Source: a virus (taxonomy: Duplodnaviria > Heunggongvirae > Uroviricota > Caudoviricetes). From it: DNA of 64,000 bases. The notes under the pieces are model-generated. The model searched no databases and was not told where the DNA came from. It saw only the letters and a program-made list of their open reading frames with translations. Positions 12,037 to 43,159 of the stretch are shown here, piece by piece. The stretch spans positions 93,946 to 157,945 of the IMG/VR virus record IMGVR_UViG_3300028898_000252. The stretch is one strand, 5' to 3'. Position numbers and translations under genes: made by a program. Numbering within the stretch: the first letter of the stretch is position 1; each line of letters starts with the position of its first letter.

Positions 12037-13344
12037 ATGACATCAATTGGAAGCGGCTTTAATCAAACAATAAATCCAACATCATATGGTTTATATGATA
12101 GTTCACCACTATTTCAATCAGACGCTGATAATCTTGTAAGATTTGTATTAACAAAATTTGGAGAACAAGTTTTAAGCGTTGAGCTTACAAAAAAAATAAT
12201 TTGGAATGCTTTTGAAGAAGCAACAGTCCAATTGAATGCTCTTCTTGTTGAATACCAAGCAAAAAGTAATTTAGCTTCCCTTTTAGGTTCCCCTACGGCA
12301 AGTTATATTTCTGGTTCTAACGGGTTATTTTCCATTAATTTATCAAATACATTTGTTCAACAAAATTTAAACTTTTTAGATTCTCTATCGGGTCCATATA
12401 CTGGGTATATCGGAATTGGAAACTGGGCCGAATCTTATTCTGGATCTATAATTTTAACAGCTAGTCGCCAAGATTATGATCTATACACTGAATTAAAAGA
12501 CGAGGCGGGGAATACATTATTTGGATATCAACCATCGGGCTCCAATGTAAGGTTTACAGTTTATGAAGTTTTTCATTTTGAACCTGTTGAATATATCTTT
12601 AACTCAAACTATGGATCTACAATCGCGTATGGCTCTGATTTTACAACAGAAGCAGGAGTTGCGGTACCAGATACAAAATATTTCGTTCTTCCTCTTTATG
12701 AAGATGTTTTAAGGGCTGGTCTTTATGAAGACGCAAGAAGAATTAGAAGATCCCATTATTCTTATGAACAATTTGGAAGAAATCTCAGACTATATCCAGT
12801 TCCAGGAGTTGGAGATTTTATGGCTTCAGGTTCTGTTCGAAGAGTTTGGGTTAGAGTTGGATTTAAGCAGCCTCCATATGACCCAAGAATGGATTCTAAT
12901 TTTGTTCAATCTAGTGCTTCATTAGGATCAGGATTACATCCTGGCACGGGGCCAGGAGGCACATATAATTTTGCCTCAAATCTATACGGAGTTTCTAACC
13001 CAGCAAATGTGCCATTTGGAATTGTAAATTATGATAGTTTAAACATATGGTGCAGAAACTGGATCAGAGAATATTCTCTTTATTTATGCGCTGAAACTCT
13101 CGGATGGATTCGTTCAAAAACAAATGTTGTGCCTATTCCTGGGGCAGAACTCACATTAAATGGTGAAAAACTACTAAGTTATGCTGGTGATGGAATTGAA
13201 AAACTTAAAACAACTGCCAGAGAATATTTGGATGGTTTAAGCTATGATAAACTTATGGAAAAAGAAGCTAACAAAATGGAACAAACAAATAAACTTCTAT
13301 CTCTTTTGCCTTATCCGCCACAAGTAGTAATTAGAGTAAGATAA
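12037..13344 (+). CDS. Neck protein (T4 gp13-like head-tail adaptor)
   Basis: WIREYSLYLCAETLGWIRSK...PIPGAELTLNGEKLL resembles the gp13 C-terminus; position before gp14/gp15-like genes. Confidence 0.75.
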   Translation: MTSIGSGFNQTINPTSYGLYDSSPLFQSDADNLVRFVLTKFGEQVLSVELTKKIIWNAFEEATVQLNALLVEYQAKSNLASLLGSPTASYISGSNGLFSINLSNTFVQQNLNFLDSLSGPYTGYIGIGNWAESYSGSIILTASRQDYDLYTELKDEAGNTLFGYQPSGSNVRFTVYEVFHFEPVEYIFNSNYGSTIAYGSDFTTEAGVAVPDTKYFVLPLYEDVLRAGLYEDARRIRRSHYSYEQFGRNLRLYPVPGVGDFMASGSVRRVWVRVGFKQPPYDPRMDSNFVQSSASLGSGLHPGTGPGGTYNFASNLYGVSNPANVPFGIVNYDSLNIWCRNWIREYSLYLCAETLGWIRSKTNVVPIPGAELTLNGEKLLSYAGDGIEKLKTTAREYLDGLSYDKLMEKEANKMEQTNKLLSLLPYPPQVVIRVR

Positions 13345-23218: not shown

Positions 23219-23255
23219 ATAACATTGTAAATTTTTGTGCATATTCTATGAATTT

Positions 23256-23735
23256 ATGTCTAATCAAAAAAATCCATCCCATTTTTTAAAAACTTGGTTT
23301 TGGTCAAAAACACTAGGACATTTTATTGATCAAGAAACGGGAAAAGAAATAGGGCAAAATAAAAATTATCTTTCTGCGGGTCCAATATATACAGGTACCG
23401 CATCTGAGTGGTGCGATATTTTTGTGGATTTATTATTTGACGCCTCAAATCATGTTCAATTAGAAAATAATGTTAAGCCATACAGCATTGCTTCTTTCAA
23501 TAGAGAAACAAAGAAAACATCGTATGTCGAATGTTTTAGTCCTGTACAGAAAATCACAGTAGGAACTGACGCATGGGAAACTTTAAATAATTCAAAAAGA
23601 TTTTCAAAACAAACAGAATTTACTGGTTCTATTGATGAAAAAATACAAGTATGTTTTGATCCAATGTATCCTAATTCTGTAGTCGTTGTTGGAGAGTATG
23701 GAAAAAATCCAATATTAATTTCTGTTATTGTTTAA
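23256..23735 (+). CDS. Stand-alone paralog of the MCP A-domain (copy 1)
   Basis: WFWSKTLGHFIDQETGKEI...AGPIYTGTASEWCDIF...DASNHV aligns to MCP YYWSRSPGKFVNKQTGSEV...AGPAFTGTVREWYETL...DVSNEI. Confidence 0.8.
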   Translation: MSNQKNPSHFLKTWFWSKTLGHFIDQETGKEIGQNKNYLSAGPIYTGTASEWCDIFVDLLFDASNHVQLENNVKPYSIASFNRETKKTSYVECFSPVQKITVGTDAWETLNNSKRFSKQTEFTGSIDEKIQVCFDPMYPNSVVVVGEYGKNPILISVIV

Positions 23736-23763
23736 AGTAATCCTATTGGCTATATCTTTTAAG

Positions 23764-24306
23764 ATGGAAACAACCAAAGAAGAAAAGAAGAAAGTTATAG
23801 GAACAGAAGATGAATTTGGTTCATATTGTCAATACTGGCCAATGAAACCAGGAGTATTTTGTAATAAATTGACTGGAGAATCTCGCGAACCTATAAAAAT
23901 GTCGAGTTTGAAACCAAGTAATCCTGGTCAAAATTTATTTACTAATAAAGAACAAGAAAAATCGTTTTGGTATTCTTCGTTTTACACTTCTTTTATTGAT
24001 ATTTTTTATTGGTTTAAAACTAATAATATTAATCTTGATAAAGTAGTTGTTGGAACTTCTGGATGGAAACTTTTACAAAAATTTGTTTTTGGGCCAAAAT
24101 TTAATGATACAGACAAATTTCTTGGAGTTTATGAAATAGAGGATTGGACAGTAGATCCCATTACCGTAGAACCTGTTTGTATTATAAAATCGATTAAAAT
24201 TCATTATGAACCCCACTTTAACATAGATTATATGTTGTTTGGAGATAGAGACGTTGGTAAAACAGTCTTGGTAAAGCTTTTATATTCTGAGGAACTTTAT
24301 GTTTAA
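23764..24306 (+). CDS. Stand-alone paralog of the MCP A-domain (copy 2)
   Basis: YWPMKPGVFCNKLTGES vs MCP YWSRSPGKFVNKQTGSE (9/17 identical); KVVVGT and IHYEPHF...MLFG also align. Start could instead be the GTG at 23728. Confidence 0.65.
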   Translation: METTKEEKKKVIGTEDEFGSYCQYWPMKPGVFCNKLTGESREPIKMSSLKPSNPGQNLFTNKEQEKSFWYSSFYTSFIDIFYWFKTNNINLDKVVVGTSGWKLLQKFVFGPKFNDTDKFLGVYEIEDWTVDPITVEPVCIIKSIKIHYEPHFNIDYMLFGDRDVGKTVLVKLLYSEELYV

Positions 24307-24751
24307 GCACTTGGTTAAAACAAATGGAAATTTATATTCTATAAACATTAAGTCATATAAACAAATTGTAGGTCTTTTGTCCAAATTAAAGTTTATAGAA
24401 CCTTTAAAAGCAGATAAAATTACTTTGGAATTAAATCCAAATGAAACTATGATTGATTTTTTTGCGTGTGCCTCCTCTGAGATGGTTCGTAATTTTATAG
24501 AATTTTTTCCAAATGTTGGATCTGTTGCAAGCAAATACTTTTACAAAATTAGAGCGTTTCCTGTTTCTGTTAAATTATTAACTGAAGATAAAATCGAAGA
24601 AACAACTTATTATTTAAACTTTTGGTTTGTTATAGATGCCAAAACGAAAGAAAAGTTTATTTGCAAAGTTAATTCAGAAGGACATTATATTAGTTCTGAC
24701 GAACCAGAGGCAGTGAAAAAGTTTTGTGAATTAATAGGAATCGAGTATTAG
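24299..24751 (+). CDS. Hypothetical protein
   Basis: 150 aa ORF overlapping the upstream stop. Confidence 0.7.
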   Translation: MFKHLVKTNGNLYSINIKSYKQIVGLLSKLKFIEPLKADKITLELNPNETMIDFFACASSEMVRNFIEFFPNVGSVASKYFYKIRAFPVSVKLLTEDKIEETTYYLNFWFVIDAKTKEKFICKVNSEGHYISSDEPEAVKKFCELIGIEY

Positions 24752-25404
24752 AAATACCCTAAGTCAAGAATTACCAATTCACCGTTATCACGTTTGCCCC
24801 AATTTTCTTCGTGAAGGTCTACTTGTTGCGGCTTTACTCCACAACGAGCTAATCCTTTAGCTAAAGTCAACATCCAATTATTAACGCGAGTAGTATAATT
24901 TCTATTATTGCTCATAACATTTTCTAAAATTCCATTAAAAATTTCGGCAAGAGAAAAATAATCTCCATTTTCTCTATCCTCTTCGGAAACATCTTTTTCC
25001 GCATCTTTAATAGAAGATATAATTGAACTATCTGAACCTTCTAATTTTTCTAAAAGAGCTGCTCTGAATTCTTCTACGGATTTTATTGGGCTAACTTTTT
25101 CTGCTATTATCCAATAGAAATACGACTTGTCAAAATCATAAATTTTTGTGGCAAACAAATCATCTATACACTGTTTAGCCTTTACTTCATTTTGATTTTG
25201 TCGCCCTGTTAAATCAATTTTCAAAACCAAGTTATTGTTGACTTGATAAACTTCTCTTGTTGAATATTCACTTTTACCAATTAATCTAAAATTAGAAATT
25301 GCATATTTTTCAATGTCTTCATAAAACCTAAAAGACTTTAATGTGTTGATTATACTTTTAATTTCGCTTGTATTAGATTCAAATATAAGTGGTTTAATTT
25401 TCAT
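24748..25404 (-). CDS. Protein kinase-like protein 1, leader MKIKPLIFE
   Basis: LVLKI (beta3 Lys), QNEV (alphaC Glu), DLHEEN (D-x4-N catalytic loop), VILDLG (DFG equivalent). Confidence 0.8.
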   Translation of the reverse strand: MKIKPLIFESNTSEIKSIINTLKSFRFYEDIEKYAISNFRLIGKSEYSTREVYQVNNNLVLKIDLTGRQNQNEVKAKQCIDDLFATKIYDFDKSYFYWIIAEKVSPIKSVEEFRAALLEKLEGSDSSIISSIKDAEKDVSEEDRENGDYFSLAEIFNGILENVMSNNRNYTTRVNNWMLTLAKGLARCGVKPQQVDLHEENWGKRDNGELVILDLGYF

Positions 25405-25406
25405 TT

Positions 25407-26066
25407 TCAAAACATCTTTGTGTAACCATAGTCTAAAATAACAAAATCCCCGTTTAAACGCCTCCCCCAGTTTCTAACGAGTAAGTCTCCTGGATTTATT
25501 TCACAGCGTCTAATGAGGTTTAAAAGGCTTTTAAGCCAGGGCGAATATTTTCCTGTTGGAAAATCTTTTTGAGATTTTAAATAATCTAAAAAAGTATGTA
25601 AAAACTGTTCGCCTTCAAGTTCATAGTTTTTTACTTTTTCTTCTTCTCCACCATAACCTTCAATCCACTGTTCTATATCAAGAAAATTAGAACCTTCTAA
25701 TTCGGCTTTAAGATAATCAATAAAACCCATTGTATCCCTGCCTGGGTTTAGAGGTCTGACTTTTTCAGAAACTAACCATGTATATCCTGTTTCGTCATAT
25801 GCATAAATCTTTGTTAAAAATTTATCTCCTCCGCAAGACTTTATCTTTATTTCGTTTTTTATTTCATCGGTCTCGTCCTTAGATACTTTTAACACATAGT
25901 TTCCAAGATTGTAAACAACTTTAAACGATCCTGCGCCTATTTCTTTACCAGCAAACATTTTTTCAATTTCATCAACAGACATATTTCTTAGCTTGTCAAC
26001 AATGTCATTTAGCTCTTTTGGTAGTTTCGAGAGTGCCATTTCAAATATAAGTGGTTTAATTTTCAT
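25407..26066 (-). CDS. Protein kinase-like protein 2, leader MKIKPLIFE
   Basis: IGAGSFKVVY Gly loop, YVLKV, KNEI, DLLVRN, VILDYG; ATG at 26066. Confidence 0.85.
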   Translation of the reverse strand: MKIKPLIFEMALSKLPKELNDIVDKLRNMSVDEIEKMFAGKEIGAGSFKVVYNLGNYVLKVSKDETDEIKNEIKIKSCGGDKFLTKIYAYDETGYTWLVSEKVRPLNPGRDTMGFIDYLKAELEGSNFLDIEQWIEGYGGEEEKVKNYELEGEQFLHTFLDYLKSQKDFPTGKYSPWLKSLLNLIRRCEINPGDLLVRNWGRRLNGDFVILDYGYTKMF

Positions 26067-26682
26067 TGTCGTCAAATCCTTCAAAGCCATAGTCCAAAAT
26101 AACTAAATCAGATCCATTTCGTGTGCCCCAATTATCATGATATAAATCCCCAGATTCTAAACCGCATAAATCAACTAGTTCCAAAATTGATACCAACCAT
26201 TCGCTATCGATTTTAGTGTTACGGGTTTTTTTATCCTTTAATATTTTAACAAACTCTCTTTCAAGAGAAGAATTCTCTGTACGCGCTATAATAGATAACT
26301 CTTTTAACACATTTGTGTTATTTAAAATACTAGATAAGAGCATTTCAAATTTATCCTTCGACAAAGTTTGAACTTGTTCAGTAATCATCCAGTTATAGTT
26401 ATTTCGATCAAATCCATAAACCTTTGTTAGTAATGAAGAATAACCAGAACATTTATAGACATTAATTTCCTTTTCTATCTCTCTTGAATTGTTGGATACT
26501 TTCAATAGAAATTTACCTGGGGTAAATGTATAATAAATGACTTTGTTTTCGCCTCTGTTAATCTCATTTAGAGAATATTTTTGTTTAATCTTTTTAAGAG
26601 ACATTTCATTCAAATCTTGAATTTCATCGGCAATATCTGAATATCGAGTTTTTGATTCGAAGATAAGAGGTTTAATTTTCAT
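26056..26682 (-). CDS. Protein kinase-like protein 3, leader MKIKPLIFE
   Basis: FLLKV, EKEI, DLYHDN, VILDYG. Confidence 0.8.
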   Translation of the reverse strand: MKIKPLIFESKTRYSDIADEIQDLNEMSLKKIKQKYSLNEINRGENKVIYYTFTPGKFLLKVSNNSREIEKEINVYKCSGYSSLLTKVYGFDRNNYNWMITEQVQTLSKDKFEMLLSSILNNTNVLKELSIIARTENSSLEREFVKILKDKKTRNTKIDSEWLVSILELVDLCGLESGDLYHDNWGTRNGSDLVILDYGFEGFDDNEN

Positions 26683-27344
26683 TTGCGACTTCTTTTCTCT
26701 TTGATTTTAAGGTTCAAATAGTCAATAAACTCATCTGAGGTTTCATCTGGAAAATCTGCGTCGAATAAACGATTAACATTATCCATAAATAAATCTAATA
26801 CACGATAACCATCATTAATATAAAAGTTTTCCAAAAATTGTATCGGATCTATTTTTTCAATAACCGAAACCGTGTTAACTTTTAATAAAGGTTCTCCATC
26901 TGAGCCTGTTAGATAATCATAAAATTTTGTATTTTCATCTACTTCATCTGGATAGACTTCTGAGTACCATTCCGCGAAATCTTGATTTTGAATTGGAATT
27001 AATTCTCCTTTTACGATATTTGTTTGACCAAGCACAAGAGGAATTAAAAGAACGTCAAGAAACATGTTTTGGAAATAGTCTTTTAAACCATAGAGCGCTT
27101 GGCTTTGATCAGGTTTTGAAATAAAATACTTGTTTCCCTTTTTAGAAACAAAAAAACAAGAAACGCCCGACTCAAAGTTTTTGCCAGTCTCTTTTTTCCA
27201 TTCATCCCCCAAACCAAAAGCAGAAGGGGAATCAATATTGTTTCCTATTTTGAGAAACAATTGATTCCCCTTATCGGCGTACTCTAGCCGCGATGTTTTA
27301 ACAATAGCTTTAATTTCTTCGAATATAAGCGATTTAATTTTCAC
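26679..27344 (-). CDS. Putative ADP-ribosyltransferase-like protein, leader MKIKSLIFE
   Basis: ESGVSCF and GSDGEPLL motifs resemble the Ser and Glu strands of R-S-E ARTs; GTG start. The CDS is secure, the function is inferred. Confidence 0.45.
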   Translation of the reverse strand: MKIKSLIFEEIKAIVKTSRLEYADKGNQLFLKIGNNIDSPSAFGLGDEWKKETGKNFESGVSCFFVSKKGNKYFISKPDQSQALYGLKDYFQNMFLDVLLIPLVLGQTNIVKGELIPIQNQDFAEWYSEVYPDEVDENTKFYDYLTGSDGEPLLKVNTVSVIEKIDPIQFLENFYINDGYRVLDLFMDNVNRLFDADFPDETSDEFIDYLNLKIKEKRSRK

Positions 27345-27401
27345 ATATCTAAATATAAAAAATTTTTTTCAACTCTGCAAGTAAATAATTTTCTTATTTT
27401 T

Positions 27402-28070
27402 TTACTTGTTGTATTCAACAGATTCTGCTAGGTCTTCTTTGGAGAAATAATTTTCTTTAAATTCTACACTTGGATAAAAATATCGCGAATTAATCAAAGA
27501 ACCGATGAATATAAAATTTGTTGGTTCTAAAAGCCAGTACTCATTTGTTTCTTTGGCGTCTGGAACACATCCTATGAATTTATCTCCCAAATCTTTTCTT
27601 AATAGTTTGGGGGAGTATTTTTTTTGGGAAAGTTCTTCACTCTCTTCATCGTTTAAATTTAATGTTTTTGTTAAAAACTTTTTCATCAAAAATGAAAGTC
27701 CATAATCAGATTCTCCATCATCTGGACAATCTTCTATTTTCTTTGCGGTCGAAAACATTTTGTTCGCTTTTTCTGTGTCCATTCCATAAATGAAGAATTC
27801 TTCATTTGGATAAACACCATCAAGCGAAGCTAAAGCATCTTCTATACGCCGTGCCACAGAAATTCTTGGCGTAATATCATCTTCAATAATATTTTGGTCT
27901 ACATCTTTATATAAGTTTTTGGCAACTCTTGGAGTAAAAACAAATTCTTTTCCCAAGAATTTAGTTGAAAGATGAAACGCATCAAATATTTCATCGAGAA
28001 GTCTTATACTTATCCTTTCACTTCTGTCAATATTTTCAGCTTCTTCGAATATAAGAGATTTGATTTTCAC
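27402..28070 (-). CDS. Putative ADP-ribosyltransferase-like protein, leader MKIKSLIFE
   Basis: FHLS...FTPRV...EDDITPRISVARRIEDAL...VPDAKETNEYWLLEP, consistent with a His-strand/Glu-strand ART fold; GTG start. Confidence 0.45.
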   Translation of the reverse strand: MKIKSLIFEEAENIDRSERISIRLLDEIFDAFHLSTKFLGKEFVFTPRVAKNLYKDVDQNIIEDDITPRISVARRIEDALASLDGVYPNEEFFIYGMDTEKANKMFSTAKKIEDCPDDGESDYGLSFLMKKFLTKTLNLNDEESEELSQKKYSPKLLRKDLGDKFIGCVPDAKETNEYWLLEPTNFIFIGSLINSRYFYPSVEFKENYFSKEDLAESVEYNK

Positions 28071-28085
28071 GAAAATAAATATGGT

Positions 28086-28337
28086 TTAAAACTGTAAATT
28101 TGCCTTTAGAGTCGGCATCATTTGTAGCCCGACCAGTTTTTTTACAAACTTGTCTTGATCATCTAAAACTACAATTGATGGCACAGCTCTAATTTCATAT
28201 TTATTTGCGATTTCTGGTTCTTCATCAATATCAACATAGCGAACATCCATTTGAAGTTCTTTGCTTAGTCTTTCTACTATTGGTTTTTGTATTTTGCATG
28301 GGCCACACCATGTTGCATAGAATTCGATTAGTTTCAT
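28086..28337 (-). CDS. trxA: Thioredoxin
   Basis: FYATWCGPCK active site; IRAVPSI cis-Pro motif. Confidence 0.93.
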   Translation of the reverse strand: MKLIEFYATWCGPCKIQKPIVERLSKELQMDVRYVDIDEEPEIANKYEIRAVPSIVVLDDQDKFVKKLVGLQMMPTLKANLQF

Positions 28338-28639: not shown

Positions 28640-28800
28640 ATGACATACTCCCACTGTTCTTAACAGTGGGTTTCTTGAATTTCTTCAAATTGCTCTCTGG
28701 TTGGATCGCCTTCAAACCCATTGCCAGTTGAGGGTGCCATAGGCAAAGGCGAAGCCTTTGCTTTTTCTCCTCTCCTACCAATCTCATTCTTGATAGGATC
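28620..28800 (-). ncRNA. Predicted TnpB omegaRNA plus flanking guide (5' boundary approximate)
   Basis: TnpB guide RNAs derive from the tnpB 3' end and right end; hairpin at 28650-28670; predicted guide TCTTTCTGATATTAAGTCC. Confidence 0.5.
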
Positions 28801-29868
28801 GACCATCCTTGAAAACGCTATGTTGAAAGCAGCATTTACATCGGCATGATCAACGTGCCCACAGTTTTGGCACTTAAATAATTTTCTTTCCCTATTTCCT
28901 TTTAAACCACAACGAGAGCAGTTTTGAGAAGTCCAAGCAGGAACAATTTCAATAACACTTACACCAGACAAAAAAGCCTTATATTTTATAAATTGTTTAA
29001 ATTTATAAAATGGCCAAGAGTTTAAGGTGAAGTTGCTTTCTTTATGGTATTTCTTCGTATTTTTCTTTGATATTCCTTTTAGGTTTTCTATCTTAATTCC
29101 ACAACCAGTTGCTTTTGCTTCTTTTACAATTACAGTTGTTACCTTATGAAGAGTATCGTTTACTATATTTTTTGCCCTGTTTCCAAGTTTTTTAATAGGT
29201 AAATGACAATTCTTTTGTTGAAGGTTTTTTCTTATTTTCTTGTACTTGTTTTGAACATGAGGAATTGATTTCCCAAATTTCTTAACCTTGCCTGTTGCTT
29301 GGTTTGCTATTACAATAGAATGAGAAGTTGAGTTTAAATCAATTCCAACAAAATTTTCGGTTTCTTTATTTATTATTTCTTCTTGAAAAGAACAAGAGAT
29401 ATAGGCGTATTCCTTGTCAATTTCTACTTGGTTAACTTTTAGAAAGTTAAAATCAAACCAACAATTTAAGTTTAGTTTTAAACAAGGAACATAGATGTTT
29501 TGGTTTTCTTTATCTGATTTTAAATTTTGACTTGGGATTATTAGTTTTACTTTGTCTTTTTTAATGATTTTAAGGGTTTTGTTTGAATGGTATTTTCTTA
29601 AAATTTGATTAGAAATTTCACTTTTCAAACCAACATGTTTAACATCTTTGGAAGATGGAGTTTTTATTCCTTGTTGAGATTTAGCATATAAAGCAACCTC
29701 ATATGCTTTTTGGAACATGTTTTCAAAATCTTTCTTATGGTGTTTGACTTTAAAAGTTTTGATAAGCATTGAGGATTAAGGATAAGTATGGGTGGGAGTA
29801 TATTTTTACTTGTAAAAAATTCGCATTCATCCCAAGGATAAATCCTTGGGTTTTCTGTTCATATTTTC
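28640..29868 (-). mobile_element. Non-autonomous IS200/IS605-family element (tnpB only)
   Basis: Right end GAAACCCACTGTTAAGAACAGTGGGAGTATGTCAT; left-end hairpin CCCAAGGA-TTTA-TCCTTGGG (29831-29850); no tnpA inside. Left boundary uncertain by several nt. Confidence 0.85.
28660..29769 (-). CDS. tnpB: RNA-guided endonuclease TnpB
   Basis: RuvC-I VGIDL, RuvC-II IENL, Zn finger CSRCG...CQNCG, RuvC-III HADVNAAFNI; the stop codon lies inside the right-end hairpin. Confidence 0.92.
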   Translation of the reverse strand: MLIKTFKVKHHKKDFENMFQKAYEVALYAKSQQGIKTPSSKDVKHVGLKSEISNQILRKYHSNKTLKIIKKDKVKLIIPSQNLKSDKENQNIYVPCLKLNLNCWFDFNFLKVNQVEIDKEYAYISCSFQEEIINKETENFVGIDLNSTSHSIVIANQATGKVKKFGKSIPHVQNKYKKIRKNLQQKNCHLPIKKLGNRAKNIVNDTLHKVTTVIVKEAKATGCGIKIENLKGISKKNTKKYHKESNFTLNSWPFYKFKQFIKYKAFLSGVSVIEIVPAWTSQNCSRCGLKGNRERKLFKCQNCGHVDHADVNAAFNIAFSRMVDPIKNEIGRRGEKAKASPLPMAPSTGNGFEGDPTREQFEEIQETHC

Positions 29869-32426: not shown

Positions 32427-34259
32427 TTATATTTCAAACCTAAAAACTATTCCTTTTGTTTTGTTATACTTTTTATGATTACAAGCAATTGAAATTGAAG
32501 AAGAATTTATTTTCTCTTTGGATGCTGCCTCGGCAATACTCGCATATGTTTCTAGTACATTTCCATTCGAATCCATCTTCTGGACTCTCTTTAATCCTTT
32601 TCTCTGTTTTGGTTCAAATTTTGGATATAAAGATTTCAATTCTTCATCCTTGTATTCCCATCCAAACCCAAATGCGTTTGCTCCTTTTCCTTCACAAACT
32701 AAAACAATGTTTGAAGCAAGAGGAATTCCATCTGCTGTAAATTTACCAAGTATTTTTGCTGCTTCTGTTGGAGATTCAAAACTTTGAATTACTTCACCTG
32801 TTTCTAAATTAATTTGATTAACCTCTTTAGAGATTATTGCCTTTCTATCAGGTACTCCTGCAACCTCTGCCAAATTAAAAGTTATATCGCCGCTAGTGTT
32901 TTTTACATATCTATCTAAATACCTTTGTTCTTCTTTTAAGAGATCTTCGTCTTTTTGTATTTCTTCAAGAATAAAAAAGGCAAACTCATCTTCTTTGTAT
33001 TTTAGCCAAGAATTCTGAAGATGAGAATTTGCATGTTTTGTAAGTTTTAATTCTGTTATATGATTATTCCATCTAACAAGAAATGAGTTTGTGCTTCCAA
33101 TGTAGTATTTTTTGGTTGGAATATGAACAAACGCATATATTCCTTTTTTTAAATTAAGATTTTCGTATTTTAATGCATCAATAAAAAAGGCATCTTTTAA
33201 AGAAAACTTTTTATCAAAAAATTGAATTTCGAACTCCGCAAGCTTTCTTTTCTCGATTTCTTCTTTTTCCTTTTTTTGTTTGATCCACTTTGATTCCAAT
33301 ATAAACTTCTTTCCAAGTATAAGAATTCTATATTCGATAAAGTCAATTAAAGATTTGGCTTGAACATTGTTTGCTTTACAAAAAGCAATTCTATCTTCTT
33401 TAGTTACTAAAGTAATTTTTTCTTCTGTTTCTATGTTTATGATAGAAACATCTTGCGACTCTGCCATTGGTTCAACCAAACTTGTATCAATATATTCTTT
33501 TTTAAACGAAACTCCTTTAATATTTCTTTCCATCGATTTTTCATTTAAAAAGAAAACTAGAGTCGAATAACTCATATTTAAAATTTCTGCTACTTTGTAA
33601 ATTGTATGATCCTTTACACAAACAGAAACACCAGTTGTGAGATTAGTAACTTTAAGATTGTTCCATTCTTTCTGCCTCGATAAAAAAGACATGTTAGCCT
33701 TTGCTTCTTCGCTCATTTTTGATCCTTTATTACTTGGCGGAAGTAAAGGTTTATATTCTGTTTTACTAGTCTCTTTAAAATTTTCCTTTAAAGTAAAAGG
33801 GCCACAAGTTTTTATAACTCTTCCACCTTCTTCTCCATTTCTTAACATTAGCTTAAAAGAAACAGAATCTAATTTATGTTTTTCGGCAAATTCTTTAAAG
33901 TTTAAAATATCGTTTGAATTAAACTCTTCTTTTGTGTCAATATTTACAAAGATTTTATTCTTCAAATAATCTTTTCTTTGGTTTAAACTCGCTTCATTTC
34001 TTGCTTCTTGAGTTCTTGGAGTTGGAGGTTTAACTTTTCCTGCATGTTTTAATCTTTCTTCAAAAGAGTTGTCTTTGAGAATATATTTCTTATAAAAAGT
34101 TCTTTGAGGATCATTTACCATTCTTTTAAACAAAGTTAAAGAGTTTGTAGGGATTCCTTCCTCTGCTGCCCATCCTCTCCAATTAGACACTTCCTTGGTT
34201 TCTTTTGTTTCTATATTATAAATGTTGTATATGGTTTTTTGTTTGGTATTTTTTTCCAT
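32427..34259 (-). CDS. Free-standing GIY-YIG homing endonuclease with NUMOD repeats
   Basis: GIYAFVHIPTKKYYIGST...RWNNH...LQNSW; NUMOD3-like KMSEEAKANMS; two NUMOD1-like C-terminal repeats (FESPTEAA, YASIAEAA). Confidence 0.88.
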   Translation of the reverse strand: MEKNTKQKTIYNIYNIETKETKEVSNWRGWAAEEGIPTNSLTLFKRMVNDPQRTFYKKYILKDNSFEERLKHAGKVKPPTPRTQEARNEASLNQRKDYLKNKIFVNIDTKEEFNSNDILNFKEFAEKHKLDSVSFKLMLRNGEEGGRVIKTCGPFTLKENFKETSKTEYKPLLPPSNKGSKMSEEAKANMSFLSRQKEWNNLKVTNLTTGVSVCVKDHTIYKVAEILNMSYSTLVFFLNEKSMERNIKGVSFKKEYIDTSLVEPMAESQDVSIINIETEEKITLVTKEDRIAFCKANNVQAKSLIDFIEYRILILGKKFILESKWIKQKKEKEEIEKRKLAEFEIQFFDKKFSLKDAFFIDALKYENLNLKKGIYAFVHIPTKKYYIGSTNSFLVRWNNHITELKLTKHANSHLQNSWLKYKEDEFAFFILEEIQKDEDLLKEEQRYLDRYVKNTSGDITFNLAEVAGVPDRKAIISKEVNQINLETGEVIQSFESPTEAAKILGKFTADGIPLASNIVLVCEGKGANAFGFGWEYKDEELKSLYPKFEPKQRKGLKRVQKMDSNGNVLETYASIAEAASKEKINSSSISIACNHKKYNKTKGIVFRFEI

Positions 34260-34360: not shown

Positions 34361-34385
34361 AAGGGCAGAAATTATTTCTGCCCTT
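34361..34385 (-). terminator. Rho-independent terminator after the MCP gene
   Basis: AAGGGCAGAAA-3 nt-TTTCTGCCCTT, followed on the minus strand by TTTCTTTT. Confidence 0.8.
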
Positions 34386-34414: not shown

Positions 34415-36316
34415 TTATATTACGTTCATATCGAGAACGGTTACAACCCCGAAGAACGAAGAATTCACCATTTTCATTCCGTTGCGGGTCATTAATCCTC
34501 TACGTGGTGTAAAGTGTTCGGTGTCATACACTGTTGGTGTGAGAACCAATGGAATGTATGGAGCGAAAACGAATCCTGATTCAAGGAATCCAGATCCTTT
34601 TAGACCGATGAGGATTTTGTTACGTGGGAAGTATGGATCGCGGTACACAGTAAAGCGGCCAGCGATTGTTCCAGTTGATTCCGCACCAACACTCATTTGA
34701 TCCGAAACTTGGCCATTTCCGTCAACTTTGTAGTTGGCTTTATAACCTTGTGTAGCTTCAAGAACTGTGCTAACGTCTGGTCCACAAACGATAAAGTTAC
34801 CTGAACCGCGGAGGGTTTTACGGTGAATTTCGTTAGAAACATCGATAATGGTTTCGATGAGTGTTTCGTACCATTCGCGAACTGTACCAGTGAATGCTGG
34901 ACCAGCGGCGAGAGAAGCGGAGCGTAACACTTCAGAACCAGTTTGTTTGTTAACAAATTTACCTGGTGATCTTGACCAGTAGTATCTCGCGGCTTTCGCT
35001 TCAAGAAGTAATTGGTTAAGAATTTCGCGGTCGATTTCGAGTGTGACCATTTCAGAAATGATGTTGGTCAATTCAGCTTCTACGTCCATTGAGTAGAAGG
35101 CAGAAAGGTCTTGCGCCATTTCTGGTGACCAACGAGCGCGAAGTTTTCTAGATTGAGCTGTAACAGCTGTTGATTCAATCTTAATTTCAACTTCTGGAAT
35201 CGCTGGTGTTGGAGGTGTCGCGAAATCAGATTCAAATGGAGAAAGTGTGAGGGCACTTCCGTCTGTGTTAACAGTAAGTGAGTCGGCAATCGCTGCTGAC
35301 ATTGTTACTGGACCCGCTGGTACCGCACCTGTATTGCTTACAGCAATAACGAAAAGTACGTGTGAACCATTGAGGTGATCTGGTGTGAATGTAGAAGTAA
35401 GGTAGTTCCAGTTACCACGTTGGTTTAGTTTACGAAGGTTTTTAACTCCTTGTCCACCTTGGTAAGTTGAATCCCAGTTCGCAACACCGTTAGCTGTTGA
35501 GAAACCAACAATCGCGAGTTGATCAACTGCTCTAAGATCAGCACCTGGGATCTTTGTAAGAACTTCAGATGAAGAAACGAAAGCGAAGCAGTAGTCAAGA
35601 GCCGCATTTTCAACGTCTGTTGAGATTTTGCTATCGTAGTCGATCCAACGAGCGTTAAGACCTGTTACTTCGGCTGCTGTTGCAACTGTATCAGAAGCTG
35701 TCCAAGCTGTACCTGACGCACCGAATGCGCCGATATCTGGAACAACTACAGTTGTTGCTGATTTGTGAACTTTCGAGAATCCAGTTCCAACGTTGTCATA
35801 CATACCACCAGCTGCGTTTATTCCACCGCGGATATCGGCACCAGATGGTGAGCCGAAAACTGATTGTCCTTTTTTGTATGTTGAGGTTGTTGCAGCATCG
35901 CTTAAGCTAAGGCCAGCTGTTCCACCGACGTTTGAACCATATGAATAATCCATATAGAAGATGAGTCCTGATGGAAGGCTCATTGGTTGGACTGAAACTA
36001 ATTCATTAGAAATTAGACCAGCGAAAAGTCTGCGAATGATTGGGAATGCAATGGAAATAAATCCAGCGACTTGGCCGCTAGAAGCAAGACCAGCTCCACC
36101 TAATGAAAGCGCGTTGGCTTCCATGAGGACTTGTGGGTTACGGATCATTTCAGCCGCTTGGTTTTCGAGCAAGCGAGCCATTTTTTGTTTGGCACCTTTG
36201 CTTGTGAAACCGTCTAGGAGGCCGTAACCTTCCCATTTTTGAACTAAGCGATCATCCATTCCGCGATTTGGATTAAGTTCTAAACCTTCTGATAATTGTT
36301 GTAATGTAAAAGACAT
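34415..36316 (-). CDS. Major capsid protein (T4 gp23-like)
   Basis: LLENQ; VSVQPMSLPSGLIFY; RKLRARWSPEMAQDL...EIDREIL; APYIPL; FTPRRGLMTR. Confidence 0.95.
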   Translation of the reverse strand: MSFTLQQLSEGLELNPNRGMDDRLVQKWEGYGLLDGFTSKGAKQKMARLLENQAAEMIRNPQVLMEANALSLGGAGLASSGQVAGFISIAFPIIRRLFAGLISNELVSVQPMSLPSGLIFYMDYSYGSNVGGTAGLSLSDAATTSTYKKGQSVFGSPSGADIRGGINAAGGMYDNVGTGFSKVHKSATTVVVPDIGAFGASGTAWTASDTVATAAEVTGLNARWIDYDSKISTDVENAALDYCFAFVSSSEVLTKIPGADLRAVDQLAIVGFSTANGVANWDSTYQGGQGVKNLRKLNQRGNWNYLTSTFTPDHLNGSHVLFVIAVSNTGAVPAGPVTMSAAIADSLTVNTDGSALTLSPFESDFATPPTPAIPEVEIKIESTAVTAQSRKLRARWSPEMAQDLSAFYSMDVEAELTNIISEMVTLEIDREILNQLLLEAKAARYYWSRSPGKFVNKQTGSEVLRSASLAAGPAFTGTVREWYETLIETIIDVSNEIHRKTLRGSGNFIVCGPDVSTVLEATQGYKANYKVDGNGQVSDQMSVGAESTGTIAGRFTVYRDPYFPRNKILIGLKGSGFLESGFVFAPYIPLVLTPTVYDTEHFTPRRGLMTRNGMKMVNSSFFGVVTVLDMNVI

Positions 36317-36361: not shown

Positions 36362-38329
36362 TTAACCAATTTTCTTGTTATTTACTAATTCTCTAAATCT
36401 GTCTGCTGAACCGATTACAATTTTGTCGGCTGCGCCACCTGAATTAACTTGTGGTTTACGAGAGACCGATTCATTGAGGGAACCAGCTTTTTTCTCTGTC
36501 TTTTTCGCAGCGTCTGTTTTCGCTTCGCTTAGTTGCTTTTTGATTCTACCAAAAATTCTTTTTGCATCTTCAGGATTTTTTGCTCTATCAATATATTCAA
36601 CAACTAATTCTTTTTGTTTTTTAGATAGACCGTCGTAGTTTGCAAAAATTTTATTTACATATAAAGAACGAGCAGCAACTGTCTCTAATTCTTTTGTATA
36701 TTCTTTAAGAGATTTGATTTGTTTTGATTCTTGTAGACTTGATTCCATATCTTCTGGAGATTTTGTTTCATCCATATCATATTCTTCGTCTACAGCTTCT
36801 TCGTCATCCATAACGATTTCGAACATGTCTTCTTCGTTAAGATCTTCTCCATCAGAAGAAAGGGTCATGTCGTCTTCATCGCCATCTGAATCAACAAGAT
36901 CAACTTTAGATCCAACCGCGTCAGCACCAGCAACTTTACCATCAGTTGTTATGGTAATTGTGGTTTGTCCACCAGATGAATCCATGCCGCCACATTCATC
37001 CATTTCTTTTTCGGCAGCAGCAAGTTGTTCTTTTAGTTTTTTAACTTTTTTGGCCGCTTCTGCTTTTTTTGCCGCGTCTTTGGAAACTGGTTTTCCAACT
37101 TTTTTAGATGATTTTTTGCTTTCCATAACTGATTCTTCAGTTGAACCAAGCATTTCATCCATTTCTTTTTCTAGAGCAGCAATTTCTTCGTCAAGGCTCA
37201 TATCAGATTCGTCAGATTCAACTTCTTCTTCCATGACATCTTCTTTAAGAAGAGATTCGTCTTCTTTTGCTTTGTGTTTGAAAGGAGCTTGTTTTCCTCT
37301 TTCTGGATCTACTAATTTTGGTTTTGAGGCAGACGCCGCAGCCTTTCCAGCCTTATCAGCAACTTTTTCAAGTGCATCAAGTGGCTCCGAAACTTTTTCT
37401 ATTGTGCCATCATCCCCAAATCCTGTTTCTAAAGATTCGAGAAGGCTATTTAAAAATGATCTTGTTTTTGGATGAACTTTCATTATTTGATTTCCTTCAG
37501 TAATTTTTTGAGTTCTGTGATAACTATTATACAATTTTTCAGAATTCTGTATTAACTTATAAAGATTTTCCATTTTTAATGATAAAACATCAAATGAAGA
37601 CTCTCTAATTTCTTTTAATTCCTTCATATTTTCTAATTCTGAATATGTTTCTAGAAGTCTATAAGTAAAATCTGTTACTTCTTTTAGTCCAATTTTTTTA
37701 GAAATGAAAGTATTTGCATATTCATTTTCTAATTCTCCAATTCGACTTCTAGCTTCTTCTAGTTTTTCTGGATTGAATTTTTGTTCTGGTTGTGCCGATG
37801 GTTGTGTTTCAGCAGGAAGTTGTTCTGTGGGTTCTGGTGTTGATTCCATAGGTGTTTCTTCCGCGACTGGTGCCGCAGGAGTTGATTCCATTGGCGGTGG
37901 TGCCATTTCTCCTCCAGTTTGGGGGGCCGCCTGTGTTGGTTGTGGAAGCCCAGTTTGTCCAGAAAAAAGAGATTCAAACGAAACAATAACTTTTCCATCT
38001 GCATCAGGGATTGGCATTGAAGCATTTCCACCAACTGGTGTAATTGGCGCACTGAAACTTGTATCAACAGGTTCTGCTGGTGCTGGTACAGCTGGTTCTG
38101 TTGGCTTTGCGTCAGCTAAAGGTTGTTCTGCTGCGGGTTGTGTTTCTGGAGTATCTAAGTTGAGTGTTTCTGGCTCATCTTGTTCCAGTAAGAATCCTTC
38201 AATTTCTTGATCGACTAATTTTTGAATATGTGGTCTATATTTTTTTAGTACATCATTTTCAACTTCTTGTCTTAAAGCTTCTTTTAATTTTTTACTATCC
38301 GCAATAGCTTGTTCGTAAAGTTTTGACAT
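36362..38329 (-). CDS. Prohead scaffold/core protein (gp22-like)
   Basis: Acidic, low-complexity, many L-x-E sites, located between protease and MCP. Confidence 0.65.
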   Translation of the reverse strand: MSKLYEQAIADSKKLKEALRQEVENDVLKKYRPHIQKLVDQEIEGFLLEQDEPETLNLDTPETQPAAEQPLADAKPTEPAVPAPAEPVDTSFSAPITPVGGNASMPIPDADGKVIVSFESLFSGQTGLPQPTQAAPQTGGEMAPPPMESTPAAPVAEETPMESTPEPTEQLPAETQPSAQPEQKFNPEKLEEARSRIGELENEYANTFISKKIGLKEVTDFTYRLLETYSELENMKELKEIRESSFDVLSLKMENLYKLIQNSEKLYNSYHRTQKITEGNQIMKVHPKTRSFLNSLLESLETGFGDDGTIEKVSEPLDALEKVADKAGKAAASASKPKLVDPERGKQAPFKHKAKEDESLLKEDVMEEEVESDESDMSLDEEIAALEKEMDEMLGSTEESVMESKKSSKKVGKPVSKDAAKKAEAAKKVKKLKEQLAAAEKEMDECGGMDSSGGQTTITITTDGKVAGADAVGSKVDLVDSDGDEDDMTLSSDGEDLNEEDMFEIVMDDEEAVDEEYDMDETKSPEDMESSLQESKQIKSLKEYTKELETVAARSLYVNKIFANYDGLSKKQKELVVEYIDRAKNPEDAKRIFGRIKKQLSEAKTDAAKKTEKKAGSLNESVSRKPQVNSGGAADKIVIGSADRFRELVNNKKIG

Positions 38330-38437: not shown

Positions 38438-38944
38438 TTATTCTTCGCGATTAACAAAGGTGTTTCCAGAACCATTTCCCAAACCATTTGTTTCACCAGG
38501 AGGAGGTGAAACATATTTTGAAGTGTGAGGTGAAACAAGTCCGTTACCAAGGAAAGCTCCACGGCTTAAAGATTTCACTCTTAATGTCGCTTCTCTTCCT
38601 TCTGCTGGAATTGTTCTTGGATCAAATGGAACAACTGGGTTTGCGATATTTGGCGCAAATGGTGTCGCAGGTTTTCCTGCTCCTCCGACTTCTACTTCAT
38701 CAAAGTTTGGAGTTCCACTATATTTTCTATCAACCAAACCAAATTGATATCCACCATCATTGATAAAATCTCCTTCAAGCTCTGCTGGTTTATAAAACGA
38801 ATCTTTGATAGCTTGGTCGGACAATTCTCCATTGTAAAGTGGAGATTGAGCAAAAACTATTTTTGCCGCTGTTGTATCCGATGATCCCATTCCGTGATTT
38901 GTTGCTGGGACTTGTCCTAAATATCCTGGTCTAATTCTTGGCAT
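38438..38944 (-). CDS. Pro/Gly-rich hypothetical virion protein
   Basis: 168 aa ORF within the head operon. Confidence 0.7.
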   Translation of the reverse strand: MPRIRPGYLGQVPATNHGMGSSDTTAAKIVFAQSPLYNGELSDQAIKDSFYKPAELEGDFINDGGYQFGLVDRKYSGTPNFDEVEVGGAGKPATPFAPNIANPVVPFDPRTIPAEGREATLRVKSLSRGAFLGNGLVSPHTSKYVSPPPGETNGLGNGSGNTFVNREE

Positions 38945-39520: not shown

Positions 39521-40240
39521 TTATTTTTCCTTTTTATTAAAGTTTTTTGCCATTTCTAAAAGAGTGTTATAATGTTCTTTTTTTAGATTTTTGTTTTCGT
39601 TCATAACAACTGTTTGTGCAGGTTTTAGTTTTGTTAAAGATTTTTGTTTTGGAGTGGAGGAAACTTGTTTGTCTTCCATAAATGCTTTTGGTGTAGATGG
39701 TTCGGTAACAATATCCCAACAGATTATATGAAGATCATCTGATACTACATCCGCGACAATTCCTTCTGGTAAAGTTTGTCGACTAATTGAACCCATAGCT
39801 CTAGAAGAAATTCCAATTTTTCCACCTGTTTTAAGTGCGCCTCTAATTTTCTTATCTTCTTCTGTTTCAGGGAAAATAACTATTTCTCCATAAACAACAT
39901 CTTCTTCAAGCCAAATCCTTCTAAATCTAAAAGCAGCATGTTTAAATTCAACAACTTCACTGTCTTTGTGATCTAATTCACCGTAAGCCATTCCAGTTTC
40001 AACTTTTGTTTTTATGTACTGTTCTAATTTTGGGACAAGAACATTTCTAGGATAAACTCTTCCATTTTGATTCAGAGTATTACAGCGTTGAATTATGCCA
40101 GAGAGCACTAATGCCTCGCTAAAACTATCCAAATTCGAAATGTCTAAACTTTCGTTCAGAGAATTTTTTGCATTTTTTAAATCAAATATGAAATTTTCTT
40201 TCAAAAGAATTTTTTTTGGTTTTTTAATTACGGTTTTCAT
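39521..40240 (-). CDS. Prohead protease (T4 gp21-like)
   Basis: NQNGRVYP; GELDH (His); GISSRAMGS (Ser); WDIVTEPST. Confidence 0.92.
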   Translation of the reverse strand: MKTVIKKPKKILLKENFIFDLKNAKNSLNESLDISNLDSFSEALVLSGIIQRCNTLNQNGRVYPRNVLVPKLEQYIKTKVETGMAYGELDHKDSEVVEFKHAAFRFRRIWLEEDVVYGEIVIFPETEEDKKIRGALKTGGKIGISSRAMGSISRQTLPEGIVADVVSDDLHIICWDIVTEPSTPKAFMEDKQVSSTPKQKSLTKLKPAQTVVMNENKNLKKEHYNTLLEMAKNFNKKEK

Positions 40241-41107: not shown

Positions 41108-43159
41108 TTATTTATTGTTTCTAGAAATTTTATTATAGAATGGCTTAAAATCGCCGCTATCGATTTCAATTTCAACTTCTGAATTTTCATCCTCTTCTTT
41201 TTTCTTAGATTCATTTAAAAGCTTGTTTAAGTTTTTCAAACTAGAGACTACTTCTTTATAAACTCCAGAACTTGGAATATTGCTAGAATTTAACTCTTTA
41301 AAACTTTCTTTTATAAGAGTTGAATAATGATTATCGCGGTCTTTTGAAGTTTCAAATTCTGTTTTTTGAGATGAAACCATATTCATTCCATAGTAAGGAT
41401 TAATAATTTGTTTGTTGAAGTTAGAGGTTTTGACCATAGAAGGAAACATTTTAGAAGGAACAAAATAATTTGGACTTATTGGTGCTTTTTTATCTGGAAT
41501 GTTGACTTTCACAATTTCAGAATCAGAAATGTCAATATTAGGAACGGTTTGTAGGTCTGCTGCAACTGTATTTTGCGGTAATTCAGCATTTCCCTGTTGT
41601 GGATTTTGAATCATTCCTGAACCTGGAACATCATAGTTTGCTGGATCAAATTGATCGGGTTCTTGGCCTGGTTCATTTTTTACAGGCTGTAGAGCTTCAA
41701 ATGTTTTATTTCTAATTGTATCCTGCTCTCTGCCTAGACGAATTCTGATTATGTCAGCATCATTAAATCCAAAAATCTCTTTTTGAATAACTTCTTCATC
41801 CACATGAGGAATGTCTTTTGCTTTGCCAGCTATATCAAGTTTCTTTTCCCAAAGTTCCAATTTTTGTAACACCGCAGCTGTACTTGGATTGGTTAATTTT
41901 AAATTAAAGTTAATTAAATCTTCGCCGTCAAAACCTTTTGCATATAGATGCAACATCGCCATACGTTTTAATTCTGCTAAAACAATTCTTTGTATCGCAG
42001 AAACAGTTTTTGAAAATCTTATATCTTGTGCAGATAAGTTGTTTTTGCCAACAGCTTCATCGTAGCCCAAAAATGCTCTTGGCATTTTAAGAGCGGCAGT
42101 TAATTGTTTGTGAACAAAGGCTATGTCATCAACAGCGGTTTGATGAGTTGCGCCTTCTAAAGTATCAACTTTTGTTAAAGAATCTCTTTTAATTGGTATA
42201 AAGTAGTTTTCTAACATAGAAGAAGGATTCCAGCGATAATCTTGTCGTCCATCATTGTTAGAAACTATACTTTTTGCATTGAATGATTCTTCAACTTTTT
42301 TCATAAATGTTTCAACATCATTTGGGTTAATACCTGTTGTATCAATATAAAACATTCTTCTTGCTGGAGATCTTACAATACGATAAGTTAACATCGCATC
42401 CACCAACATCATTAATACTCTATATGGTCTTCTTGCTCCATCTAACCAACTTGTTCCATGTGGTCTATAAGCATCGTTAGATAAAAATCTAAAATTGGCA
42501 ACTTGGAAATTTTCCAAATAAGAAGAATTTTGTGACGAAGGATTTTGAATATTAGGAGTTGTTATTTTGAATCTAACAGCATTAGGATCATTTTTATCAT
42601 ACTTTTCTTGTCTTTCACAATCGGGTGCAGGAATTTGTTCGATATTGATTATTCCTTCGCGTTCTCTAATATCTAAAAACAAAAAGAAGTCGCCAAATTT
42701 AAGCATACTTCTAACCCAGTATCTTAAATCAGAATTTAATTTGCAAACATCAAAAAAAAGTTCTTCCAAACTCTTTCTTATTTCAATTGAATCTGTTTCT
42801 ATGTGTAACATTTGATCATTTTGATCGACCGCGCAAATTTCATCTGCCAAACCATCTAAAGCGGTTGCGCATTCTGGTGATTGTGCATCCATGTCAATAT
42901 ATTCTCTGTAGCGATAAATTCGATCATATACTCCAAAATATCCCATACCAACAAATCCAGAATAGCTATGCCTATACGCGTTATAACTTGGATAACCAAT
43001 ATTTCCTTGAAGTGCTAATTCCTGTGGAGTTGCAAGATTTCCATAATCTAAACCTTTTATTTTTCGATTAATATTTACCCCAGAACGAAAAAGATTCGCT
43101 ATTCTTTTATAAAATTCTAGCGTCCTATTAACAACTTCATTTTCTTTAGTATCTGACAT
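41108..43159 (-). CDS. Portal protein (T4 gp20-like)
   Basis: YIDMD...ALDGLADE; WVRSMLKFGDFF; DAMLTYRIVRSPARRMFYIDT; ENYFIP; ALKMP; DIRFSKTV. Confidence 0.93.
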   Translation of the reverse strand: MSDTKENEVVNRTLEFYKRIANLFRSGVNINRKIKGLDYGNLATPQELALQGNIGYPSYNAYRHSYSGFVGMGYFGVYDRIYRYREYIDMDAQSPECATALDGLADEICAVDQNDQMLHIETDSIEIRKSLEELFFDVCKLNSDLRYWVRSMLKFGDFFLFLDIREREGIINIEQIPAPDCERQEKYDKNDPNAVRFKITTPNIQNPSSQNSSYLENFQVANFRFLSNDAYRPHGTSWLDGARRPYRVLMMLVDAMLTYRIVRSPARRMFYIDTTGINPNDVETFMKKVEESFNAKSIVSNNDGRQDYRWNPSSMLENYFIPIKRDSLTKVDTLEGATHQTAVDDIAFVHKQLTAALKMPRAFLGYDEAVGKNNLSAQDIRFSKTVSAIQRIVLAELKRMAMLHLYAKGFDGEDLINFNLKLTNPSTAAVLQKLELWEKKLDIAGKAKDIPHVDEEVIQKEIFGFNDADIIRIRLGREQDTIRNKTFEALQPVKNEPGQEPDQFDPANYDVPGSGMIQNPQQGNAELPQNTVAADLQTVPNIDISDSEIVKVNIPDKKAPISPNYFVPSKMFPSMVKTSNFNKQIINPYYGMNMVSSQKTEFETSKDRDNHYSTLIKESFKELNSSNIPSSGVYKEVVSSLKNLNKLLNESKKKEEDENSEVEIEIDSGDFKPFYNKISRNNK

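Follow-up and report, generated by a model that had tools for sequence, protein, structure and literature searches.

A short N-terminal leader as a probable capsid-targeting and cleavage propeptide on kinase-rich cargo of a T4-related phage

The capsid-targeting sequences (CTSs) of bacteriophage T4 (Mullaney and Black 1996, cited after the reviews PMC9026906 and PMC3012670) have a length of 10-19 residues, and their processing depends on an Ile or Leu and a Glu (PMC9026906, section 2.6). In the internal protein IPIII these are residues 8 and 10 (I and E), both of which are needed for processing (PMC9026906). The T4 prohead protease gp21 cleaves after Glu in I/L-x-E motifs, is active only inside the prohead and quickly limits itself (PMC12991175). 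The ADP-ribosyltransferase (ART) Alt is packaged and injected (PMC5512222), and it has been suggested in review that the CTS principle generalises beyond T4 (PMC9026906). Kinases that lack the C-subdomain have also been predicted to be delivered by phages with the invading DNA (Iyer et al. 2017; PMC5512222). Here we describe a leader peptide, MKIKPLIFE or a variant of it, that opens a cassette of five genes and further genes in the linear 172,135-bp IMG/VR virus record IMGVR_UViG_3300028898_000252. The window, by which we mean the whole stretch of 64,000 nucleotides that was analysed, covers bases 3309-67308 of that record and contains the cassette.

By analogy with T4, the leader is probably a capsid-targeting and cleavage propeptide of new sequence with a kinase-rich enzyme cargo. 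Every computational test run favours a CTS-like peptide that would be removed at I-x-E by a gp21-type protease. A preliminary description of this DNA had proposed such a leader, and the protease, the predicted folds, the leader codons, the unrelated bodies and a model of the complex all speak for it; two of its parts, the reading of ATATTTA as a late motif and of the cassette as the whole tagged arsenal, were not supported.

The cassette lies between the tail and head modules and consists of five consecutive minus-strand genes, g1-g5 (Table 1), with the common leader as first reported: VKIKSLIFE twice, from GTG starts, and MKIKPLIFE three times. The g4 start is an internal ATG, the longest open reading frame (ORF) opening 8 codons earlier within the end of g3. 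The synonymous leader codons were also listed correctly (ATC/ATT, TCT/TCG, CCT/CCA, ATA/ATC and TTC/TTT). With the leaders removed g3, g4 and g5 are still paralogous (28-34% identity, E 1e-12 to 3e-29), while no match was found between g1 and g2 or between either of them and the kinases, which bears out the claim that unrelated bodies stand under one leader. In structural models the leader is the segment of lowest confidence and is not packed against the domain: the predicted local distance difference test score (pLDDT) is 33 over residues 1-10 in g4 and stays under 50 over residues 1-9 in g1. It lies outside both predicted folds and is not a structural strand of a shared fold, a possibility that had been raised at the outset.

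Like N-termini were sought by a six-frame scan of the whole 172-kb record. The pattern [FLIVM][IL]FE ending at residue 8-13 was found in 9 of 195 crude gene calls, the number predicted from its internal frequency being 0.26 (Poisson P about 1e-11). Once g4 and one V-F-E variant are added the total of tagged proteins is 11, and one more protein, x7, carries the motif at residues 14-24, which may indicate a longer propeptide. The cassette is thus only part of a genome-wide tagged set, six more genes (x1-x6) carrying variants that end in [I/L/V]-F-E. The 11 proteins represent five or more unrelated kinds; their leader has a length of 9-11 residues and follows the consensus M-x(1-4)-basic/hydrophobic-[L/F/I]-[I/L/V]-F-E, with I-F-E as the ending in nine, L-F-E in one and V-F-E in one. 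The tagged cargo of the record comprises five predicted minimal kinases, one GNAT acetyltransferase, one ART-like protein and four proteins of unassigned fold (g2, x1, x2 and x6), and thus appears to consist mostly of protein- or small-molecule-modifying enzymes.

Three related genomes, L013, L014 and L015, carry the cassette, which in relatives stands about 1.1 kb downstream of the gene for the major capsid protein (MCP), on the same strand as the head module. L013 and L015 have g2-g3-g4 and L014 has g2-g1-g3-g4, as compared with all five genes in the window. The g2 orthologs of all three relatives bear the leader, and in L014 the four leaders are MLKLKKIIFE, MKLKQFIFE, MKLFKFIFE and MEIKPIIFE. 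Among 15 leaders from the window and these relatives the I-F-E codons vary at third positions only, while the upstream residues are exchanged conservatively (K/E, I/L, K/F, P/S/Q/K and L/F/I). Selection appears to act on the leader peptide itself, because the codon changes within I-F-E are all synonymous.

These observations bear on two readings in which the Glu ending would have no part in processing. The repeated starts could be a nucleic-acid or translation element, such as an initiation region or homology for recombination, or a tag for some other system, with the Glu at the end incidental. The swapped order of g1 and g2 in L014, and the presence of 3, 3, 4 or 5 cassette genes in the four genomes, fit recombination at repeated starts. 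The dispersed leaders of x3, x4, x5 and x6, however, share the peptide and not the nucleotides, and the purely synonymous changes in I-F-E also count against such an element, which we consider very unlikely. As for a tag read by another system, the record, about half complete, contains no radical-SAM gene that could serve as a partner. Mere common descent, in which the leader would be a functionless N-terminal segment of tandem duplicates, fits g3, g4 and g5 as tandem paralogs; yet the leader is identical at nine of nine positions although the bodies have diverged to 28-39% identity, and it is also found on the non-homologous g1, g2, GNAT, x1, x2 and x6, at six loci. The probability of this reading is close to negligible.

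What speaks most strongly for a detachable tag is a double dissociation between leader and body. One leader stands on at least five unrelated bodies in this record, and metagenomic homologs of the same bodies carry other [I/L]-x-E leaders. An [IL]xE motif occurs within residues 1-16 in 85 of 106 short kinase-family representatives and in 30 of 40 distinct g1-family N-termini, compared to 28 of 184 other proteins of this record (Fisher P about 1e-28). Many leaders of the kinase and g1 families elsewhere are of the MKT[LF][KRQ]E[FY] type (MKTLKEYY..., MKTLQEFF..., MKTFREYY...), close to those of T4 ipI, ipII and ipIII; in the T4 record ipI starts MKTFKEFTS, and ipII and ipIII start MKTYQEFIAE. 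An MKTLKEYY-type leader is found on both a kinase and a g1-family protein. The leader therefore seems to follow the phage lineage rather than the fold, and the fact that the leaders of other lineages differ in sequence and keep the [IL]xE ending is a further point against a nucleic-acid element. A back-translated leader pattern searched over IMG/VR gave 12 single matches, none of them N-terminal and all due to chance, and blastn of the cassette locus against the phage collection found nothing.

An equivalent architecture with a different leader can be recognised in a cultured phage. Alishewanella phage Slicko01 (OQ508956.1; L019) encodes an S77 protease and a kinase homolog (hhalign 95%, E 4e-8), and in its region 85888-89441 the kinase homolog and four upstream genes all start in an MK[IF]xxLY(E)SxLEE-like manner. 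The four upstream genes are not relatives of g1 (hhalign probability 0.2%) and have no Pfam family. Three of the five tagged genes continue with G[IV]SP[IV][VL][YF]H[SA]T, which points to a second group of tagged paralogs, of unassigned fold, in the cargo of that phage.

The gp21-like protease that the window was said to encode is present. It matches phrog_207 and shares 29% identity with T4 gp21, and its His91 and Ser145 align with the catalytic residues H85 and S140 of the T4 enzyme (as given in PMC12991175), so that the catalytic His and Ser are kept. The places of residues 8 and 10 of the T4 IPIII CTS are taken in the leader by Ile7 and Glu9. We modelled protease residues 30-205 in complex with residues 1-45 of g4, in three runs and with controls. 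The complex scored 0.66, a model confidence and not a measurement, compared to 0.01 for the best control; that mark is attained by 51 of 78 solved complexes and by 2 of 108 mismatched pairs. The three runs have 89% or more of their contacts in common, and the pLDDT of the partner is 73 or higher. The most confident contacts run from protease residues 145-150 and His91 to L6, I7, F8, E9 and M10 of the leader; Ser145 contacts F8 and M10, Ser146 contacts E9, and the bond between E9 and M10 lies at Ser145. Cleavage after Glu9 would be expected to have such a geometry, and the model supports, but does not show, recognition of the leader by the protease. Among relatives of the protease in the PDB only 5JBL, the T4 protease alone, was found, and no solved complex of an S77 protease with its substrate as a separate chain, so recall of a solved complex by the model is unlikely, if not excluded.

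The main alternative is that the tagged proteins are substrates of the protease and not injected effectors, being activated or inactivated by cleavage late in the producing cell, or serving as structural or DNA-condensing proteins of the head with no action in the next host. The complex model backs recognition by the protease only, which this alternative shares. It also draws on x7, which adjoins the portal gene and has its motif at an internal position, as in a structural propeptide, and on the T4 core proteins gp67, gp68 and gp24, which have short cleaved N-termini too (PMC5694885). The full catalytic set is, however, present in four of the five kinase copies and the acetyl-CoA motif is kept in the GNAT protein, which would be unexpected for packing material. 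In addition, a substrate would normally have to be inside the head, because T4 gp21 is active only in the prohead and is quickly self-limited (PMC12991175). We therefore regard this alternative as unlikely, and return below to tagged proteins as packaged and injected cargo.

Table 1. Tagged genes, head genes and neighbouring features. Coordinates are positions in the window, except for x3-x6, where they count on the record.
Feature	Coordinates	Strand	Leader or motif	Assignment and remarks
g1, 222 aa	27402..28070	-	VKIKSLIFE (28044-28070), GTG start	ART-like fold (tentative)
g2, 221 aa	26679..27344	-	VKIKSLIFE (27318-27344), GTG start	no recognisable family
g3, 208 aa	26056..26682	-	MKIKPLIFE (26656-26682)	predicted minimal kinase, phrog_4301
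g4, 219 aa	25407..26066	-	MKIKPLIFE (26040-26066)	predicted minimal kinase; modelled protein
g5, 218 aa	24748..25404	-	MKIKPLIFE (25378-25404)	predicted minimal kinase paralog; absent from L013, L014 and L015
x1, 158 aa	1142..1618	-	MIKIFDIVFE	fold without match
x2, 186 aa	1657..2217	+	M(M)LFLKQFIFE	fold without match; divergent from x1
x3	103179-103973 (record)		MKLFNFLFE	predicted kinase, phrog_4301
x4	106246-106746 (record)		MNLFNLIFE	predicted GNAT acetyltransferase
x5	110947-111660 (record)		MLKTFIFE	predicted kinase, phrog_4301
x6	125189-125977 (record)		MLKKFIFE	no family
x7, 399 aa	43660..44859	+	KIKLFEFIFEE at residues 14-24 (nt 43699-43731)	no family match; beside portal gene
Prohead protease	39521..40240	-		T4 gp21/Peptidase_S77 family; phrog_207 E 5.5e-35; PF03420 on L013 ortholog
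Portal protein	41108..43159	-		T4 gp20 family; phrog_213 E 3.6e-51; PF07230 on ortholog
MCP	34415..36316	-		gp23 family; phrog_138 E 1.9e-69
655-aa acidic protein	36362..38329	-		candidate scaffold/core; sits between protease and MCP
Partial MCP copy (predicted)	23235-23735	+		first of two small ORFs (23235-24306) adjoining the cassette
Thioredoxin gene	28086-28337	-		small
TnpB/IS200-605-type transposase-like gene	28660-29769	-		phrog_506 E 7e-35
610-aa ORF	32427-34259	-		resident gene with putative homing endonuclease
Terminator-like hairpin	34361-34385			perfect 11-bp stem; T-run on minus strand

The kinases make up the largest part of the cargo. The one family matched by g3, g4, g5, x3 and x5 is phrog_4301, to which PHROGs assigns no function; they are its only five copies in the record and are all tagged. 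In an alignment of nine sequences, orthologs included, K60, E72, D194 and D212-x-G214 are invariant, as are the Phe and Glu of the leader. The beta-3 Lys, the alpha-C Glu, the catalytic Asp and the D-x-G are thus kept and a Gly-rich loop is present; the Asn of the catalytic D-x-x-x-x-N is kept in four of the five copies, x5 having His there. The AlphaFold2 model of g4 (pLDDT 80, predicted template-modelling score 0.75) retrieved only kinases among the top 50 Foldseek matches (E 2e-3, template-modelling score about 0.39) and among the top 50 of an exhaustive VIA-align search (best Z 7.3, root-mean-square deviation 4.0 over 139 residues), the scores being modest in both. The family profile matches STK24/MST4 in the PDB at E 2e-5, and no Pfam kinase model matches the tagged kinases at E up to 1. 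Fold, catalytic residues and the PDB profile match therefore agree with the earlier count of three kinases in the cassette, and we assign g3, g4, g5, x3 and x5 to the protein-kinase-like superfamily with predicted activity. With the exception of x3, which has a longer tail, the proteins stop 5-13 residues past the D-x-G, so they would be minimal kinases without the usual C-terminal lobe.

More than 3,000 cluster representatives belong to the kinase family, which carries an [I/L]-x-E leader in about 80% of its short members. The family looks like dedicated capsid cargo in many phage lineages and is the part of the finding most worth following. That the phrog_4301 minimal kinases as a family are dedicated cargo of T4-related phages, injected to phosphorylate host targets, is possible, though we would stop somewhat short of calling it likely. 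If true, this would be the first description of kinases delivered by phage virions, acting before any phage gene is read, and the lineage-specific leader would be a sequence-readable label listing the injected arsenal of each uncultured phage. Some family representatives (P0008, P0010, P0012 and others) are 450-970 aa long with 2-6 matched stretches, reflecting either the fusion of kinases in tandem or the joining of adjacent genes in gene calling. Searches of the phage collection by tblastn with g4 and with the representative P0072 found nothing, and the single weak match of x3 there was at chance level (E 0.3).

The fold of g1 is tentatively ART-like. Its AlphaFold2 model, built with 32 homologs, has a pLDDT of 84.7, and almost all structural matches are to ADP-ribosyltransferases, all of them weak, with Foldseek E values no better than 0.17 and VIA Z scores of at most 5.8. 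They include TreX (Z 5.8, root-mean-square deviation 3.2 over 106 residues), pertussis S1 (5.5), PltA (5.4) and Arr (3.8), and the Atlas lead was Arr/DarT/PARP with scores of 0.88-0.90. The family, with 81 metagenomic homologs, has invariant H33, E63-D64-D65, R69, S71, Y95 and E177, whose match to H-Y-E or R-S-E roles is unassigned, and its profile has no match in the PDB by sequence. The acetyltransferase x4 is predicted from Pfam Acetyltransf_1 (PF00583, 24.3 bits compared to a cut-off of 20.7) and from matches to PHROG acetyltransferase families, and it retains the acetyl-CoA motif of GNAT. No match was found for g2 in Pfam, PHROGs, Atlas or PDB profiles. An ART-like assignment was also considered for x6 and was rejected, the Atlas leads being sub-threshold and the Atlas model poor (pLDDT 0.47).

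In the proposed mechanism the tagged proteins would be made during prohead assembly, when the leader would dock them to the scaffolding core. The gp21-type protease (His91/Ser145) would then cut after Glu9, with Ile at P3 and Glu at P1, to free the mature enzyme in the head, a step that has the support of the complex model only. The parallel of T4 IPI-III and Alt suggests that the cargo would leave with the DNA at the next infection and act before phage genes are expressed. From T4 IPI and Alt (PMC3012670; PMC5512222) we infer packaging, injection and an anti-defence role for the tagged proteins, and host takeover or anti-defence seems, on this analogy, the most plausible role of the cargo. 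The presumed docking partner of the leader is the 655-aa acidic protein, proposed as a candidate scaffold or core protein from its position only, because the T4 gene order is gp21-gp22-gp23. It has no family match and contains 19 [IL]xE sites, or 2.9 per 100 aa.

Several points weigh against a packaged and injected cargo. The phage is uncultured and read from sequence alone, and CheckV puts the completeness of the record at about 50%. Five of the 11 tagged genes are scattered in non-structural regions, and the leader has only the M-K start and the phi-x-E end in common with T4 MKTYQEFIAE. The score of the complex bears on cleavage and not on targeting. The proposed late motif ATATTTA is not enriched, and a strong terminator after the MCP gene means that co-transcription of the cassette with the head genes is not assured. 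This terminator-like hairpin, which directly follows the MCP gene, is the clearest in the region.

ATATTTA does stand 5 nt before both GTG starts (g1 and g2), as first noted, but its reading as a late motif is not supported: there are 7 upstream occurrences compared to 5.7 +/- 2.3 in composition-matched shuffles, and head genes are not marked by it. T4's TATAAATA precedes one gene in the record, and sigma-70-like sites are not enriched upstream of genes (44 compared to 48.4). The motif TA[AG]TTAA (often ATAATTAA) is enriched upstream (21 compared to 9.3 +/- 3.0 in shuffles) and stands 4-30 nt before many genes of the structural region, among them those at 36362-38329, 38438-38944, 40240-41076, 61032-63365, 3275-6463 and 12037-13344. 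Two of the leader genes, x5 and x6, also have it upstream, and in L014 the form TAATTAA is found before the ortholog of g2. We take the motif as a candidate promoter or regulatory element of the phage. Contigs from an RNA library overlap parts of the cassette; they are silent on transcription, strand and timing and were not used.

The phage is a distant T4-type myovirus. Its T4-type genes code for a Portal_T4 portal, a prohead protease (gp21/Peptidase_S77), a capsid protein of the gp23 family, and the sheath and tube of a T4-type tail. The portal, of the T4 gp20 family, places the phage among T4-related myoviruses, and by tblastn it has 34% identity to that of Flavobacterium phage immuto and 33% to that of Microcystis phage Mel-JY01; by portal and protease together these are the closest cultured phages (33-37% identity). 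Near-identical DNA is found in bioreactor, activated sludge and wastewater metagenomes from several studies.

The MCP matches T4 gp23 by BLASTP at E 3e-29, the N-terminal region included. A candidate maturation site, L-M-E66|A, is about as far from the N-terminus as L-T-E65|A is in T4; the two fall in different BLAST columns, so E66 was rejected as the aligned equivalent of E65 and kept as a similarly placed candidate only. The protein is 633 aa long compared to 521 aa in T4, and residues about 130-340, which are unmatched in the gp23 alignment, may form an insertion domain. The MCP gene region is also the G+C peak of the window (0.43). The first of the two small ORFs that adjoin the cassette is homologous to residues 445-574 of the phage's own MCP (BLASTP E 2e-16, 28% identity), with orthologs in L013, L014 and L015, and is therefore a free-standing copy of part of that protein.

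On the other side of the cassette a small thioredoxin gene immediately precedes it, as in L013 and L014. The TnpB-like gene, which is missing from those two relatives, has the thioredoxin gene on one side and the head module on the other, and the gap from the MCP gene to the thioredoxin gene is about 5.7 kb in the window, with five small ORFs and the TnpB gene, which is not so in L013. Over its N-terminal ~170 residues the 610-aa ORF is the counterpart of a 176-aa L013 gene, and in its C-terminal half it matches the homing-endonuclease families phrog_314 and phrog_7168. This suggests that a homing endonuclease has joined, by fusion or insertion, a gene already resident immediately downstream of the MCP gene.

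Should the tag act as it does in T4, the proteins that an uncultured phage injects can be read from sequence alone. Kinases dominate the predicted set in this record, a class not documented in phage virions in the literature searched, and for host takeover and counter-defence the foremost candidates are proteins already at work before phage transcription. A tag this short is also a possible handle for loading foreign proteins into non-T4 capsids, and the equivalent cassette of Slicko01, as a cultured phage, offers an immediate experimental system. The surprise is limited, T4 biology having already established the principle, which is textbook knowledge; the tag sequence and the cargo are new.

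The closest known counterparts are the CTSs of T4 IPI, IPII and IPIII and the propeptides of Alt and gp24, which are likewise short N-terminal propeptides on unrelated proteins with an [I/L]-x-E end for a gp21-family protease. As here, the cargo set differs among relatives, and the ART-like g1 parallels Alt. The leader differs from the T4 CTSs in being MKIKxLIFE, with 9 residues and an invariant Phe at P2, and whereas the T4 internal proteins are small and basic, the cargo here, known from genes alone, consists mostly of predicted enzymes of about 160-265 aa, five of the 11 being kinases. The ejection proteins of phiKZ-like phages and SPN3US also combine a T4-type prohead protease, x-x-E motifs and conserved N-termini on diverged paralogs (PMC5694885; PMC7411985), but their propeptides are mostly of more than 100 residues and end in A/S/G-x-E, as compared with 9-11 residues and I-F-E here. 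The kinases of Iyer et al., compared by description only, share the kinase core with intact catalytic residues and no C-terminal subdomain; unlike the tagged kinases, most of them form part of giant multidomain proteins, and their description includes no cleavable leader (PMC5512222). T7 gp0.7 is likewise a phage kinase, and it phosphorylates proteins of the host as infection begins (as cited in PMC5512222). It is, however, an early product made after DNA entry and not a virion component, and no similarity was found between it and the tagged kinases, which by the T4 analogy would enter the host with the DNA.

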